Shown: piece after piece, positions 18,602-61,182 of the stretch | Numbering within the stretch: position 1 is the stretch's first letter | How the letters are laid out: every line of letters starts with the position of its first letter | Notes under the pieces: model-generated | Told to the model about the DNA's origin: nothing | The model's database searches: none | Seen by the model: the letters and a program-made list of their open reading frames with translations, nothing else | Program-made: the position numbers and the translations under genes | Virus record (IMG/VR): IMGVR_UViG_3300028583_002208 | DNA: 64,000 nucleotides | From: a virus | Taxonomy: Duplodnaviria > Heunggongvirae > Uroviricota > Caudoviricetes | Strand: one strand, 5' to 3'

Positions 18602-18943
18602 TTAACCTTTCTGTGGTAATGAAGCTTTTAAAGAAGCTTTCACCCCTTTAGAACAATTAAGCTCCTCGATAACAGTGTCCATATTTTCCAAAGTGTGATT
18701 ATACTTTTGGATGTTTTGGTCATACATTGTCAGGAGGTATTTAACTTGACCAACAACCTCATAAACGAAATCGTTTAAAGTATCCTGTAATTCTTGGTCA
18801 ACATTATCCAATGCCGAAACGTGTTCTAACATTTTGATAATGATTGCTTCTAGTTTGGCGTAATCTTCTTGGTAATTTGAGCCATTTGATTCTTGTGTCA
18901 TGGTTTCTCCTTTTATGAATATTTGTTGATTATAGAAGTACAA
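18602..18943 (-). CDS. hypothetical protein
   Basis: 113-aa ORF between nrdB and the DNA-binding ORF. Confidence 0.4.
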   Translation of the reverse strand: MYFYNQQIFIKGETMTQESNGSNYQEDYAKLEAIIIKMLEHVSALDNVDQELQDTLNDFVYEVVGQVKYLLTMYDQNIQKYNHTLENMDTVIEELNCSKGVKASLKASLPQKG

Positions 18944-20250
18944 TCACCTAAGTAGTATCCCTCTTGGGTAAATACTTGAGGTACTGTAGTTAATCCTTTG
19001 TTTATCAAACTTTGTTTAGCGTATTCTCTTTCTACATCAACCTCTGTTACATTGATCCCCTTATCTTTAAGGAATTGTTTAACCTTATCACAAAAAGGGC
19101 AAGACTCTTTTGTATAAACCACAACATCAGAGGGCAATGTGTTTTCCCTATTACCGAAGTCATAAATAATATCTTCGCTAGTATCATCAATAACAGAGTT
19201 TAAGCGGTAATTGTTCAAACTAACCTCTTGAGCTGACTGTTGATTAGAATCTATATCTAACCACTTATCCATCCAAGGTAAAGGGTTTTCCTCTACAACA
19301 TCATAAGGTTTAACCAATCCTAGCTTATTGTATACAGCATCCGTTCGGTATGTAACCCAATCCTTAAGGAGTCCTGATGTCAAACCAAGAACACTACGTC
19401 CTTCACTGAATATATACTCTGACCAAGAAACCTCTTGATGGTAGACGCTATCCACTAACTCTTGTACTTGAGGTTTAATCTTCTCAAAAGTAGCTTTCCA
19501 TTCTGATTCTTTAAACAGGATATCAATAATAGCTTCATCCATTTGAGTATGAATAGTCTCATCTACCATTATTTTCTGTACTAAACTTGCCACGCCCTCA
19601 AATAGGTCTCTTTCCGCTAAACTAAAAGTACATGCGAAGGAGGCCATAAATTCCATTGCTTCTAGACAGTATAGAGCTACTAAGCTTAAAAGTAGAGTTT
19701 CTCTTACTTCTTCTGAAGATACTGAGTTTTTATCCAAAGAGTATTTAGCACCAAGTATTTTTAACTTAGAAAAACTTTTAGCAATAACATCTGAACGATC
19801 AGTTATATTCTTATCGGACAGTATCTCGTTAAATATATCGTCAGGGTTAGAAATACATTGCCTAATTATTTCAGAGTACGTTAATGCATGGAGGGATTCG
19901 TTTTCGCTCCACTTTAGCATCATTTGACTCAGGTCACTATTGGAAATAAATGGTGCAAACAATGCAATTATAGATCTAGATGCAAGGCTATCCGCTTCGT
20001 ATTGAAAGGATAAGGTTTTTATCATAACATCGTAACTATTTTTATCACAACTTGCAAAATCTAACCTTGATTTCTCTAAGTCTATCTCATCTTCTGCCCA
20101 ATCTAAACTTTTAAGCTTTTTGAATAGTTTGAATAACTCTGGGTAAGGTCTGTTCATGGTATCATGTAAACCTAACCCCTCTCCCATAAATAAAGGGTAT
20201 TTTCCTGTTTTCCATCCTGTGTTAGAACGATTCAATACATTATCTATCAC
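18913..20250 (-). CDS. nrdB: Class I RNR small subunit NrdB with a C-terminal glutaredoxin (NrdH/Grx-like) domain fusion
   Basis: The N-terminal ~360 aa show an NrdB-like ferritin fold ('LFMGEGLGLHDTMNRPYPELFKLFKK...W.EDEID'). The C-terminal ~75 aa, 'VVVYTKESCPFCDKVKQFLKDKGINVTEVDV...TVPQVF', give a CPFC glutaredoxin motif. Confidence 0.8.
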   Translation of the reverse strand: MIDNVLNRSNTGWKTGKYPLFMGEGLGLHDTMNRPYPELFKLFKKLKSLDWAEDEIDLEKSRLDFASCDKNSYDVMIKTLSFQYEADSLASRSIIALFAPFISNSDLSQMMLKWSENESLHALTYSEIIRQCISNPDDIFNEILSDKNITDRSDVIAKSFSKLKILGAKYSLDKNSVSSEEVRETLLLSLVALYCLEAMEFMASFACTFSLAERDLFEGVASLVQKIMVDETIHTQMDEAIIDILFKESEWKATFEKIKPQVQELVDSVYHQEVSWSEYIFSEGRSVLGLTSGLLKDWVTYRTDAVYNKLGLVKPYDVVEENPLPWMDKWLDIDSNQQSAQEVSLNNYRLNSVIDDTSEDIIYDFGNRENTLPSDVVVYTKESCPFCDKVKQFLKDKGINVTEVDVEREYAKQSLINKGLTTVPQVFTQEGYYLGDCTSIINKYS

Positions 20251-20302: not shown

Positions 20303-21312
20303 TTACATGCGGCAACTTTCACAGTCGTCTTCTTCATCTTCTAAAATAGAAGTTGCTGCAACCGTGGCCTTAGTCTCATCTTCTTTGATACCACCTTTAC
20401 TATTCTGATAGTATAAACTTTTAAGCCCCATTTTAGTAGCGTAGAAGTAATCTTTCATCATTACAGTAAGAGGTACTTTTTCACCTTCATACTTACTGTA
20501 GTTTGTGTAAAGGTCACAACTAATACCTTGTCCATGAAACTTTTGGAAGATAGCATAACAATCTATAATATCCTTAGTAGGTACATTATAAGCAAGTTCA
20601 TAACTATTCTTAACTTCTTCCTTCTCAATATCAGGTGCTGCAAAAGTATTCACTGTACTACCAGAACGCTTAACAGTGTAAAATTCACGTATAGGGTATA
20701 AGCTGTTGGTAGTCTCGCTTGCTTGAGAGCTACTTTCAGCAGGAGGAGTTGCCTCTAGTACCGAGTTACGTATACCACCTTGCCTTATGATTCCCTTACG
20801 TAAACTTTCCCAATCAAATTTCAAACCTTGGCTATGTACATCATCTACGTTTTTATTGTACGTGTCAATAGGTAGCCAACCTTCAGGATACTTAGTCCTA
20901 TCTATTAAAGAACAGTTACCCTTTTCTTTTGCTAAACGTAAACTTGCACTGTGTAAGTAGAAGCTGTGCATTTCAGCCAAAGAGTGCATGTAATTCTTAC
21001 CCTCTAAGCTACTATAACTCAAACCTCTTACTGCCATATCATGTGCTAGATTGGTAATACCTATACCTACACTACGTCTACCTTTAGCAGTGTTCTCCAC
21101 TTGAGGGAAAGGATACTCCATCAAATCGATAACATTATCAACTGCTAGAAGAGAATAATAAGCTACATCTTCATATTCTTCTTCTGAAATTCTTCCTGCA
21201 ACTAAACAACTTAGGAAACATAAAGCAATTTCACCTGCCTCAACTCCTTTATTCTTATCATACATATCTACAACGTTTAAATAACCTTTAGTAGGTAAAA
21301 ATATTTCTTGAC
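20303..21312 (-). CDS. nrdA: Class Ia RNR large subunit NrdA, exon 2 (C-terminal half)
   Basis: Upstream of the annotated ATG the frame stays open and reads 'QEIFLPTKGYLNVVDMYDKNKGVEAGEIALCFLS...', aligning with E. coli NrdA 'LEIALPTKPLNDVNDENGEIALCTLS'. It ends with the KSLYYQN and C-terminal CxxC tail. Confidence 0.85.
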
Positions 21313-21566
21313 TATAAGATCCCCTATTTTAATAAGGGTATGGATCATATCATCATCCGTTCTGGATGTCGGGCGCTAATGTGGTTATTAAGTTCTCAAA
21401 CCCCACTGATCTCTGGACGTTCTCTATCCTTAGAGCTTCGCTGCTGATTGCCATCTACTAACTAAAACACACTCGCTTCTCAGCGATAATGCAAAGCCTA
21501 GTTAAGGTTTCCAGTCAATTCACCCAATTATTCAATACGTGTCCCCACGTAAGGCTGCGTCATTTC
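21313..21566 (-). mobile_element. Group I-type self-splicing intron (ORF-less, ~254 nt) in nrdA
   Basis: The exon-1 frame hits TGA 3 nt past the conserved 'SSNL'. Joining ...aatctgt | gtcaagaa... restores 'SSNLCQEIFLPTK' (the NLC-EI radical-site motif). P1 can form between exon 'cugu' and intron 'gcag' with a U-G pair at the junction. R-like 'cagagaucag' and S-like 'gauaugaucc' elements are present. Boundaries are good to +/-1 nt. Confidence 0.7.
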
Positions 21567-22833
21567 ACAGATTGCTACTATAGATTGTATCTTTAAAAGG
21601 AGTATGCAAATTCATTTCATCTAACCAAGTGTGGTATTTACGGCCTGTATCACCACGTTGAGTTAAGAATAGTTTTAATACTTCAAAAGAGTTAACAAAC
21701 CTCTTCTTTCCTTCACTCTTTTCATAAGATTGATAAGCTTTCTTAAACTCGTCATAGCCTTTAAAATGTGCTTCATATAATTCAGGAGAATCATAATAAG
21801 ATACCAACATCCAAGGTTCTTTTCTAGAAGCTTTTTCAGCTAATAGTTTTGTTGCTCCCATCGAATAATCAAGTCCACGTATACGCTTATCTTCTATCGT
21901 GGTAGGATGCTTCAATCGTAACAAGGTTTCTACTTCTGGGTCAAGTACTGTGTAATGTACTGTCGCACCACCACCTCTAACTTCCTGCTTAGTAGACTTA
22001 ACCGCCCCTTGTAAATAACGGTAGTAAGGTATCTTTCCTGTATGTTTATCGGGCTGAGATCTTATAGGGTCTTTAACAGAACGAGTAGTTAAAGTACAAC
22101 CGATACCAGAGGATGCATTAGTAAACTTATAAGCAGCATGTACTAAATTCTCAATAGAGTCTGCAGTATCTTCTGACTTAATTACACAACAGCTAGCAAA
22201 ACCTTTAAAAGAAGTTCTCAAACCTGCTAAGAAAGGTGTTGGCATATTGATCTTCAAGTCGCTTAAATATGTGTATAGCTTCTCAACATCTTCTAATCTA
22301 CGCTCATCAGGTTGTGTTTCCATCACCTTCATTGCAATGCCCATGAAAGCATATTGAGGTGTTTCACAAACTACACCATTTAGCTTCTTCGCATACTTAG
22401 TGCTTATTTGTTTTACTGTAGATAACTTATAATTCAAATCTTTGTCATTATCTAAAACACTATCAAGATAATCTAAGTCAGAGTCATCATAATCCATGTA
22501 CTCCCATACACCAGCAGATGTCATTTTATAATAGAAGTCTGGTAAAGATGGCCTCTCTTCGAAACCCCCGTGTACAGTTTTATACAAAGAACCTAAATAT
22601 AACCTAGCTGCCATATCTAAATGTTCAGGAGTTTTCTTATCAGAGCAAGCGTCAATTAATGCTTGTTGCAACTCTTGTGTTGAACACTTATCTTCTACTT
22701 TACGTAATGCATCAAAAACTAACCCTGACCAACAAATACCTATTGTTGAACCCCACTCTGCCATACGGTTCAATTTGTCAGGAGAAAACTCTACAACATC
22801 ACCATTACTTTTAGTAACATAGTTTATACTCAA
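21567..22833 (-). CDS. nrdA: Class Ia RNR large subunit NrdA, exon 1 (ATP-cone plus N-terminal catalytic half)
   Basis: 'VTKSNGDVVEFSPDKLNR' is an ATP-cone. '...RKYHTWLDEMNLHTPFKDTIYSSNL' aligns to E. coli '...RIYIQNVDHCNTHSPFDPAIAPVRQSNLC'. Confidence 0.85.
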
Positions 22834-57250: not shown

Positions 57251-57327
57251 GGGACATTAGCTCAATTGGACAGAGCAAGGTGTTTCTACCGCCTAGGTTG
57301 CAGATTCGAGTTCTGCATGTCCCACCA
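57251..57327 (+). tRNA. tRNA-Arg (anticodon UCU), CCA encoded
   Basis: Manual cloverleaf: acceptor gggacat/atgtccc, D-arm gctc-aattggaca-gagc, anticodon arm aggtg-ttTCTac-cgcct, T-arm gcaga-ttcgagt-tctgc, discriminator A, then CCA. Confidence 0.8.
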
Positions 57328-57331
57328 CATT

Positions 57332-57406
57332 GCGAGATTAGTTTAATTGGTAAAATAGTAGCCTTCCAAGCTTCAGTCATGGGATCGTAACCCATATCTC
57401 GCTCCA
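57332..57406 (+). tRNA. tRNA-Gly (anticodon UCC), CCA encoded; slightly non-canonical
   Basis: Acceptor gcgagat/atctcgc (7 bp). D-arm gttt/aaat. Anticodon arm gtagc-ctTCCaa-gcttc with one U-U mismatch. T-arm atggg-atcgtaa-cccat. Discriminator U, then CCA. Confidence 0.6.
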
Positions 57407-58386: not shown

Positions 58387-58510
58387 TTACATTTATAAAA
58401 ATTTCCCTACTATATTAAAATAATAATTCTAAAAACTTTTCATAAAAAGAAGACTTCCAAGTCTCTCCTCGTACCATTCCACATGGTGCATCCCTTTTAA
58501 GGGAACCCTC

Positions 58511-58547
58511 AAGCCCCAGTCGCCTCTCCTCGGCTGGGGCTTTTTCT
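58511..58547 (+). terminator. Rho-independent terminator
   Basis: aagccccagtcg...cggctggggctt, then TTTTTC. Confidence 0.6.
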
Positions 58548-58621
58548 TGCCTAAAATTTGACATACTTTAATAATAGGAATATAATCCTCACAATTAGAT
58601 GTCTAAGAGAGCGACAGAGCA

Positions 58622-59451: not shown

Positions 59452-60261
59452 ATGATCTGGAATAATATCACCTTTCCTGTCAAAGAAGAGTGGAAAGATA
59501 TCGAAGGTTACGAAGGTATTTATAAAGTTAGTAATTATGGCAGGGTGAAGAGTCTGTCCAGAGATATTCACTACCACAGGAACGGAAAAATGACTTCTAT
59601 CTTTAAGAAAGGAAGGTTACTTAAACCCAAGACAGACAAGGATGGTTATAAAGAGTTATGTATGACTTCCTCTGAAGGTATTAGGAAATACAAGAGAGTG
59701 CACCGTATCGTGGCAGAAGCTTTCTTAGAAGAAACTCACATAGATAACGCTGTGATAGACCACATAGATAATACCAAAGACAATAATATTTGGTACAATC
59801 TGCAATGGATGACTTCTACTCAGAATACTATAAAGTATTACGCAGAAGATTACAGTAAAAGTAGAACTTTAAGTTCCTTAACAAAAGAGGAGTTTGCTAG
59901 GATAGGTGAACTTTACAATAAAGGTTTACTTTACCCTGAGATTATAGATGAAATGGGTTTGACGGTAGAAAGTCCCTCCACTTTATGGGAAGTTCTATGT
60001 GGGAGAAGGTTGTCTAGCGTATCTGGTTTTAAAGAGGGAGATTTTAAAACAAGACCTCACCCTACTACGAAATTAACTGAAGATGATGTAGTACAAATAA
60101 TTAAAGAAAGAATTATAGATAAACAAAAGTTAAAAGTGTTGTCAGAGAAATGGGGTGTAGCTGAGTCCATGATAAGTAGATTTACTAAAGGTACTCGACA
60201 ACCTTCCGCTTATATTAAATTCAAAGAAAGGTATAATTATGACAAAGAAAAAGAAGAGTGA
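59452..60261 (+). CDS. HNH homing endonuclease with NUMOD4-type N-terminal module; free-standing, abutting terL exon 1
   Basis: 'IEGYEGIYKVSNYGRVKS' is NUMOD4. 'HRIVAEAF...IDHIDNTKDNNIWYNLQWMTSTQN' is the HNH core. The C-terminal region is HTH-like. Its 3' end overlaps the terL exon-1 start in another frame. Confidence 0.75.
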   Translation: MIWNNITFPVKEEWKDIEGYEGIYKVSNYGRVKSLSRDIHYHRNGKMTSIFKKGRLLKPKTDKDGYKELCMTSSEGIRKYKRVHRIVAEAFLEETHIDNAVIDHIDNTKDNNIWYNLQWMTSTQNTIKYYAEDYSKSRTLSSLTKEEFARIGELYNKGLLYPEIIDEMGLTVESPSTLWEVLCGRRLSSVSGFKEGDFKTRPHPTTKLTEDDVVQIIKERIIDKQKLKVLSEKWGVAESMISRFTKGTRQPSAYIKFKERYNYDKEKEE

Positions 60262-60346
60262 ACCACTCTTCAAACCCGCCAGTGAGAAGCAAGCTCTTAT
60301 TCTTAAAAGGGCTTCTGACACACAGGTGACTATTATTGGTGGAGCT
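60239..60346 (+). CDS. terL: Large terminase subunit TerL, exon 1 (N-terminus up to the first half of Walker A)
   Basis: ATG at 60239 with a GAAAGG RBS. Translation 'MTKKKKSEPLFKPASEKQALILKRASDTQVTIIGGA' then hits TAA. 'Q..L......Q..IIGGA' is the typical TerL region before the P-loop, and it is missing from the ORF track. Confidence 0.7.
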
Positions 60347-60592
60347 TAAAAATCCAGTGGTTCCACATTAAATAACCCTGCTAATTCGATGAAGGCTAAG
60401 TGTACTACATAAGCTAATATCGAGCCGAATGATTAAATTCATGGGTGTAGAGATCAATCGTGATGAGTGTAACGATGTAGGGGCCAAGTGGCTTCCAAAC
60501 GTAGGGCTATGTTATAACATAGAAGATATGATCCGACAACACAGGAAACTGTGGAAAGAGAGTAACGCCTCTAAAACTGATCCTGAAAAATG
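60347..60592 (+). mobile_element. Group I-type intron A in terL (ORF-less, ~246 nt), splitting the Walker A motif
   Basis: Exon 1 ends ...GGA, exon 2 begins (A)GSGKS. P1 forms between exon 'ggagcu' and intron 'gguucc' with a terminal U-G, and the intron ends in G (60592). R-like 'gagaucaa' and S-like 'aagauaugauccg' elements are present. Confidence 0.65.
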
Positions 60593-60928
60593 GCTGGTTC
60601 AGGAAAAAGTTATCTATTGCAAATGATCCCTTTAATGTTAATAGATGATCCCAATTCGGAAATGGTAATGTTCCGTAGAACTAATCCCCAGATAAAAGGT
60701 GCGGGTGGTATATTTAGCACAGGTTGCGGAATATACAATCAGCTCCCTCCTAATATAAGACCAAAGATTAAAACAGGTGACCTAGAAGTTATATTCCCTA
60801 CCAAAGACGAGAAAGGTAGGCGTAGTTATAATGGTGCCAAGATAAAATATCAACAAGCAGAAAATGTAGAACAAAGTAAACTAAATGCCCAAGGTTTGCA
60901 ATGGACTTTTGTTGGTATAGATGAGGGT
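60593..60928 (+). CDS. terL: TerL exon 2 (ATPase: Walker A second half to Walker B)
   Basis: '(A)GSGKSYLLQMIPLM...' completes the P-loop, and '...LQWTFVGIDEG' is Walker B. The frame then hits TAA at 60929. Confidence 0.8.
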
Positions 60929-61182
60929 TAATTGTAGCCCCTTAATGTAGGAATACATTTAGAAAATCCCGTGAATTCAGGGGAAGCCTCTAGTAGGTAA
61001 TCCTGAGCGAAGCTCGAAAGAGAACGTGCAACGACTATCCTGAAAAGGAGTACACAACAAGCTAATGGTTGTGGAAGCGCGGGACACCTAGAACAGGTGA
61101 TGATATAGTCTGAACTTCTATGGTGACATAGAGCAGCCATAATAGGCGGAAGATGACTTGCAAACATCTTTGAACACAATTG
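60929..61182 (+). mobile_element. Group I intron B in terL (ORF-less, ~254 nt), inserted just after Walker B
   Basis: Canonical group IA-type core: R element 'caacgacuauccug' and S element 'gaugauauagucug' (P7 GACUA/UAGUC). A U-G P1 forms between exon 'gggu' and intron 'gccc'. It ends in G (61182). Joining gives '...VGIDEG|TQFEWSQIEYF...'. Confidence 0.75.

Follow-up and report, generated by a model that had tools for sequence, protein, structure and literature searches.

Group I introns that interrupt phage genes for ribonucleotide reductase (RNR) are a textbook phenomenon, and finding one in such a gene is in itself unsurprising. Among the genes of nucleotide metabolism they interrupt td, nrdB and nrdD/sunY of T4, nrdE of Twort, bnrdE and bnrdF of SPbeta, and nrdA and nrdB of Pectobacterium phage CB7. 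The introns of nrdB and nrdD, Twort I2 and the CB7 introns carry a homing-endonuclease ORF. A different arrangement is known from Aeromonas phage Aeh1, in which nrdA is split by insertion of mobE: there the insert is an endonuclease gene, no intron is involved, and the two polypeptides assemble (PMC3045599).

Here we describe an intron in nrdA of a Pseudoalteromonas myophage that is Qingdaovirus-like, within a 64,000-nucleotide stretch of IMG/VR record IMGVR_UViG_3300028583_002208 (hereafter, the window). It shares about 93% identity with HM1 and J2-1, two Pseudoalteromonas phages of the genus Qingdaovirus. Like the known phage RNR introns, the insert is a self-splicing-type group I ribozyme at a highly conserved and functionally critical position in a lytic phage, and it shares with them the P1–P10 core, an extra hairpin between P7 and P3', and a guide sequence that forms both P1 and P10. 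It differs from them in having no endonuclease ORF, in belonging to a marine Pseudoalteromonas/Vibrio myophage lineage where the intron is unannotated, and, in this allele, in lacking the canonical junction between terminal G and exon. As in Aeh1, nrdA is annotated as two adjacent ORFs, but the gap between them is a ribozyme, and a split would strip the catalytic Cys and Glu from both. The intron is thus a new, previously unannotated member of a well-known kind. At blastn sensitivity no DNA match to the introns of T-even or other well-studied phages was listed, and our literature searches found nothing specific on a Qingdaovirus nrdA intron or on natural introns without a terminal G.

Results

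The intron interrupts the catalytic cysteine codon of nrdA

The ORF of exon 1 (22833..21565, minus strand) codes for 422 N-terminal residues of the large subunit of a class Ia RNR and ends in ...IYSSNL, with CTG at 21570-21568 followed directly by TGA at 21567-21565. The frame of exon 2 is open from G21312, 47 nt upstream of the called ATG (21265), and reads GU CAA GAA AUA UUU UUA CCU ACU AAA, that is, C-QEIFLPTK. The first-pass annotation had described an exon 1 that runs into a TGA after SSNL and an exon 2 that resumes with QEIFLPTK upstream of its ATG, and the coordinates agree with both statements. Joining U21567 to G21312 yields SSNLCQEIFLPTK across the junction and a 758-amino-acid ORF that matches Escherichia coli NrdA end to end (4r1r, E-value 4e-135). 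Because SSNLCQEI of the joined product aligns with SNLCLEI of E. coli NrdA, placing Cys423 opposite C439, Cys423 is the counterpart of the thiyl-radical Cys439 and is flanked by the counterparts of N437 and E441; the proposed regeneration of this active-site triad by precise joining therefore stands. The Cys codon is split after its first base, so the intron lies in phase 1 of the catalytic Cys codon (Table 1).

Only two placements of the junction restore the nrdA frame, U21567|G21566...A21313|G21312 and G21566|A21565...G21312|U21311. The catalytic residues C-QEIFLPTKGYLNVVD, which include the Cys and the Glu, are absent from both of the separately called ORFs, and since neither ORF holds C439 or E441, splicing is needed for NrdA function. 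Compared with the relatives J2-1 and HM1 (dS 0.2–0.4), dN/dS is 0.01–0.02 for exon 1 and 0.02–0.03 for exon 2, values which indicate that nrdA was functional until recently, or still is.

Downstream of nrdA, the window encodes an NrdB with a glutaredoxin domain fused to its C-terminus (18913-20250, minus strand; PF00268 and PF00462); nrdB starts 53 nt past the nrdA end. The fusion is kept in all related contigs.

Table 1. Coordinates of the nrdA exons, the intron and its structural elements in the window. Intron boundaries are those of the placement in which U(-1) and the frame are retained, with A21313 as the last intron base.
Feature	Coordinates	Strand	Details
nrdA exon 1	21567..22833	-	422 codons plus U21567 (first base of the Cys codon); ORF list, alignment to E. 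coli NrdA
P1 hairpin	21555..21570	-	CGCAG (21559-21555) paired with exon CUGU and intron G (21570-21566)
Group I intron	21313..21566	-	254 nt, no ORF; RF00028, helix map, orthologues
P10 half of the internal guide sequence	21559..21562	-	UGAC; pairs with exon-2 GUCA 21312-21309
P2	21536..21551	-	UACGUG-GGGA-CACGUA; 5/6 pairs covary among nine aligned sequences
P3, 5' strand	21521..21527	-	UUGGGUG; partner CGCCCGA 21375-21369
P4-P5 domain	21442..21517	-	P4 is 21517-21511 with 21447-21442; P5 is CC/GG
P6/P6a	21417..21441	-	GC...GU; CUCUA-AGGA-UAGAG
P7, 5' strand	21407..21413	-	G(A)GAUCA; pairs with 21347-21342; inside 'cagagaucag'
P7.1/P7.1a hairpin between P7 and P3'	21381..21406	-	GUGG-GGUU-UGAG-AACU-UAAUAA-CCAC; one compensatory pair
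P8	21354..21368	-	CAUCC-AGAAC-GGAUG; two pairs doubly compensated versus CACCU/AGGUG
J8/7 and P7, 3' strand	21342..21351	-	'gauaugaucc'; C21343 pairs with G21411
P9	21321..21338	-	CCCUUAU-UAAA-AUAGGGG; helix map and local folding
Anomalous 3' junction	21312..21313	-	A21313-G21312; orthologues all G|G
nrdA exon 2	20303..21312	-	GU (Cys codon positions 2-3), QEIFLPTK..., to the stop codon

The insert is a group I intron without an ORF

The Rfam group I model (RF00028, Intron_gpI) matches 21605..21321 on the minus strand with 60.1 bits (gathering score 50, E-value 1e-12), and so the outcome that would have spoken against a group I assignment, a lack of covariance-model support, did not occur. Elsewhere in the window, Rfam matches at the gathering level are limited to one tRNA and a group I intron in terL that scores higher. 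The longest ORF confined to the intron interval, on either strand, has 35 amino acids, and an endonuclease ORF sought inside the intron was not found. An intein is excluded by the in-frame TGA right after SSNL and by the insert length of 254 nt, a number not divisible by 3. Nor does the locus fit a gene in pieces of the Aeh1 type, in that the catalytic Cys and Glu are encoded in neither called ORF.

All core helices, including P1–P10, P5a/P5b, P6a and P7.1, can be written out with window coordinates, and local folding of the intron recovers P1, P2, P4–P5b and P9. The U21567·G21558 wobble in P1 marks the 5' splice site, the guide pairs with the start of exon 2 in P10, and the P3–P8 core contains the P3/P7 pseudoknot with covariation. 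Two segments that had been singled out as P7-like, 'cagagaucag' (21415..21406) and 'gauaugaucc' (21351..21342), do form the P7 strands, and compensatory swaps support their pairing. Within P7, the G21411-C21343 pair next to the bulged A21412, with an A-U pair below, is the putative guanosine-binding pair, G21411 being assigned as the counterpart of the guanosine-binding G by position only. The window intron also carries a P5a (UAACUA/UAGUUA) and P5b (CGCU-GAGA-AGCG) extension, which is found in contig L147 and in Pseudoalteromonas phage PH357 and is absent from J2-1 and HM1.

The Rfam match, nine orthologues at the same site, full pairing with compensatory changes and the lack of any ORF longer than 35 amino acids together support the first-pass reading of an ORF-less group I intron inside the catalytic Cys codon of nrdA, as judged from sequence comparison. 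By descent and structure the insert is a group I intron, although this allele lacks the terminal G before a frame-restoring 3' exon that is present in all nine orthologues.

Orthologous introns covary with the window intron

Nine further introns occupy the identical nrdA site in Pseudoalteromonas and Vibrio phages and in metagenome contigs: those of J2-1, HM1, Vibrio phage PWH3a-P1, an IMG/VR contig (L005), and five contigs that encode exon-2 homologues (L147–L151). They share the insertion site (CUGU | ... | GY), P1, the guide and the P3–P8 core; among them and the window intron, the latter alone lacks one G at the 3' junction. Of the eight scanned with RF00028 (all but PWH3a-P1), seven score 75–95 bits and L147 falls below the gathering score.

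When four sequences are aligned, each of 50 pairs is standard throughout and seven are doubly compensated, as against 0–1 in controls with the partners slid by 1–3 columns. When the window and eight orthologues are tabulated, 29 pairs in P2, P3, P4, P7 and P8 are standard in all nine sequences, and most of these positions show several pair types. In P7, the window and L147 have GAUCA/UGAUC where the other aligned orthologues have GACUA/UAGUC. The difference amounts to two adjacent compensated swaps, which affect neither G21411-C21343, the presumed guanosine-binding pair, nor the A-U pair beneath it. The window and L147 further share the P5a/P5b extension and P8 (CAUCC/GGAUG), unlike the other orthologues.

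In all eight tabulated orthologues exon 1 ends in CUGU, whose last U forms a U·G wobble with the guide, G is the final intron base, and exon 2 starts with GU or GC, completing a UGY (Cys) codon; the junctions of PWH3a-P1, read by eye, agree. The first intron base extends P1 in the tabulated orthologues through a pair that covaries between G-C and A-U, and the first 4–5 bases of exon 2 pair with the guide in a P10 that covaries as well (GUCA/UGAC, GUCA/UGAU, GCAAA/UUUGU, GUCAG/CUGAU).

Among the best 60 of about 4,000 phage records that match the NrdA segment, the protein is split at this position only in J2-1, HM1 and PWH3a-P1. NrdA homologues of 49–63% identity run continuously through SSNLCQE, and the intron is therefore optional. 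In all, the family occupies the catalytic-Cys codon of nrdA in at least 10 marine Pseudoalteromonas/Vibrio phage lineages. Since the RefSeq record of J2-1 annotates nrdA as two separate CDS and that of PWH3a-P1 (L155, NC_020863) leaves the gene wholly unannotated, though both exons and a canonical intron are present, these public annotations can be corrected.

A G is missing at the 3' splice junction of the window allele

At the 3' junction the window reads ...GGGGAUCUUAUAGUCAAG, with A21313 as the base before the P10-paired GUCA, and L147, the closest relative of the intron, reads ...GGAUAAAAUAG|GUCAAG (in short, ...AUAGUCAAG versus ...AUAG|GUCAAG). A global alignment of the two introns places a single 1-nt gap exactly here (ATA-GTCAAG versus ATAGGTCAAG). 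All nine orthologues combine U(-1) with a terminal G that precedes GU or GC, where the window has A-G. The simplest description of these sequences is that one G of the G|G junction has been lost in the window strain. The first-pass annotation had noted an ambiguity of 1 nt in placing the junction; the ambiguity is real, but with nine intact orthologues it appears to be a lesion in one strain and not a placement problem of the family.

An exact look-up of the exon-2 protein returned seven contigs. The three whose DNA was read (JGI 3300023215, JGI 3300022693 and Logan SRR7467836) are 100% identical to the window over 1.7–7 kb, including the junction. This identity across separately assembled samples makes a one-off assembly error unlikely; the three represent the same strain and not independent lineages, and so they are no evidence that the lesion persists in nature. 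Sister strains in which the junction is intact were sought with the exon-1 protein, and only the same strain was returned.

With G21312 as the terminal G, the mRNA would be one base short and would translate to SSNLFKKYFYLLKVI-stop; because of the missing junction G, canonical splicing would give a frameshift. Exons ligated in frame would read ...AAUCUGUGUCAAGAA..., with the junction AAUCUGU|GUCAAGAA, as opposed to AAUCUGU|UCAAGAA in the -1 product. The frame survives only with A21313 as the terminal base, or if the 5' cut falls not after the wobble U but after G21566, a base of a G-C pair. Checked by hand, no alternative 3' site after an upstream G yields an in-frame Cys. We also considered that ribosomes might slip by -1 on the mis-spliced mRNA, and rejected this because Val would then replace the catalytic Cys. 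The guanosine-site pair G21411-C21343 is unchanged in the window, so no switch of specificity to A is expected.

A recent lesion is the favored explanation

From their structure we infer that introns of this family splice by the standard group I mechanism. Exogenous guanosine would attack after the U of the P1 U·G wobble (CUGU|G with CGCAG), following the first base of the Cys423 codon; the guide would then hold exon 2 through P10 (GUCA with UGAC), and the terminal G of the intron would enter the G-C guanosine site in P7, so that ligation of the exons gives ...SSNL-C-QEI.... In group I introns generally, the terminal G takes the same site in exon ligation as the exogenous G does (PMC2588497). 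In the window strain, one G of the terminal 'G|G' (the terminal G plus the first exon base) is missing. We assign a probability of roughly 0.6 to the reading that the lesion in the window allele arose recently and that nrdA yields little or no functional product as a result; in that case the phage would depend on the reductase of its host. The ribozyme core itself is intact and would have been under selection until recently. The window allele is either a splicing-dead copy of a constrained gene caught in nature or, less likely, a natural test of how strict the terminal-G rule is.

Intact, constrained exons and the four compensated pairs in P7 and P8 would also be expected if the gene works through a non-canonical splice, with NrdA still made in vivo by use of A21313 as the terminal base or by a 5' cut after G21566. 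The strong purifying selection on both exons, a fully paired core with compensated changes specific to the window copy, and the recovery of the strain in several samples all fit such splicing. So does the local geometry: a 3-bp P9.0 (AUA/UAU) can form just before A21313 and position it together with P10, and the P1–P10 guide helix fits the alternative placement, with exon 1 ending at G21566 and exon 2 starting at U21311, equally well, since the guide pairs with CUGUG plus UCA as it does with CUGU plus GUCA. Against it, all nine orthologues keep the terminal G and the wobble U, and the guanosine-site pair remains G-C. In established work (Price and Cech 1988; Michel et al. 1989; Barfod and Cech 1989; Been and Perrotta 1991), a terminal A is reported to require an A-U pair at that site, and the first step to require the U·G pair. 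By classical mutagenesis, neither rescue route, the terminal A or the shifted 5' cut, should be efficient with a G-C site pair. It also counts against this kind of splicing that no junction-spanning protein close to that of the window phage was found among 5.8 billion sequences, where the uninterrupted junctions came from homologues of 38–63% identity. We consider it improbable. If true, productive splicing of the window allele would break, in nature, a rule that ranks among the most conserved in group I splicing.

Slightly lower still do we rate a sequencing or consensus artefact, by which the true genome would read ...AUAG|GUCAAG and the intron would be fully canonical. The difference from the closest homologue is indeed one base in a GG pair, and no other damage is apparent in intron or exons; yet the three separately assembled samples carry the identical sequence, and a two-base run is not a typical site of homopolymer errors. 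That the RNA is not spliced at all and nrdA is expressed as two assembling polypeptides, like NrdA-a and NrdA-b of Aeh1, has the precedent of a split and functional NrdA (PMC3045599, PMC3653736) and the two CDS annotated in J2-1 in its favor. It is nevertheless highly implausible here: the exon-2 ORF starts at MYDKNK, 15 codons past the junction, which leaves the Cys and Glu of the NxCxE motif in neither product, and the gap holds a conserved, covarying ribozyme and no endonuclease gene. A recent lesion in the window strain thus remains our preferred explanation.

The terL introns and the variant P7

The terL gene of the window is interrupted by two group I introns, at 60347-60592 (intron A) and about 60932-61180 (intron B), both on the plus strand and both ending in a canonical G. 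The Walker A region (IIGGA | AGSGKS) is divided by intron A, whose RF00028 score of 48.6 bits falls slightly short of the gathering score; intron B comes after FVGIDEG and reaches 97 bits (match 60919-61133). A three-piece terL of the same kind is present in Vibrio phage 1.193.O (L142).

The first-pass annotation had proposed that the nrdA intron and intron A form one family because of a common variant core, and had called for their pairwise comparison. The two do have the variant P7 elements AGAGAUCA and GAUAUGAUCC in common; the copies in intron A, at 60449 and 60525, are the only others in the window. The GAUCA/UGAUC form of P7 is, however, widespread in the introns of other, unrelated phage contigs, and in sequence the nrdA intron is nearer to intron B (nhmmer E-value 8e-7), with which it shares the sequence from P6a to P8, than to intron A. 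Both terL introns differ from it in host gene, P1 and peripheral helices. A MAFFT alignment of the nrdA and terL introns misaligned intron A and was dropped, and for this reason the comparison draws on Rfam alignments, blastn and nhmmer.

Where the splice site could be placed, the variant-P7 introns of other contigs end in a normal G. Two GAUCA/UGAUC introns score below the gathering threshold though fully paired, one in L147 (Logan SRR23175291, 1264-1518) and one at 60322-60555 of the window. No P7 pairs are marked in the structure line of the Rfam model, and the score is therefore probably lowered by the variant P7; it is apparently what keeps intron A under the gathering score, and introns of this class are probably under-detected by standard annotation. 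In a metagenome scan with the 17-mer GGATGATGATATGATCC, at least 120 loci were returned, mostly chance matches, and a few of these loci, together with matches in viral contigs, did contain variant-P7 introns. A window-specific 21-mer from P9 had no match in IMG/VR.

Immediately upstream of terL lies a free-standing gene for a NUMOD4 and HNH_3 endonuclease (59452-60261, plus strand; Pfam E-values 4e-14 and 1e-7), which is a candidate for helping the ORF-less introns to move by 'collaborative' homing. Two further RNA features occur on the plus strand in this part of the window. Adjacent tRNA genes for Arg(TCT) and Gly(TCC) are encoded at 57251-57406, and a GC-rich hairpin followed by a U run (58484-58548), with weak sub-threshold matches to NsiR1 and ar14, looks like an intrinsic terminator rather than an sRNA.

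Probable exchange of intron segments

Comparison of contig L154 (positions 1-210) with the window (21240-21450) reveals a mixture of types. The exon-2 protein of L154 is 99% identical to that of the window, yet its intron is of the J2-1 type and its first exon-2 codons are CAG GAG AUU UUU CUC, whereas those of the window, CAA GAA AUA UUU UUA, are of the L147/L148 type. This mix indicates that intron alleles and about 20 nt of flanking exon have been exchanged independently of the rest of the gene. The P5 extension of the window intron resembles elements in phage PH357 and in the terL introns of Vibrio phages. Taken together, the pattern suggests that segments of the intron are exchanged, with short tracts of co-conversion. 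Such fine-scale mosaicism, seen in the P5 extension, the P7 and P8 variants and the co-converted codons, fits a traffic of introns among phages that co-infect a cell and encode free-standing HNH endonucleases.

In J2-1, a free-standing HNH_3/AP2 endonuclease gene (gp28; L001 3995-4516) lies between nrdA and nrdB and overlaps the end of nrdA. It sits where mobE does in T4, and it is absent from the window. In PH357 (L143, about 2460-2760), a group I-like sequence with the window-type P5 extension occupies an unannotated gap between a 'hypothetical protein' CDS and the gene for endonuclease VII.
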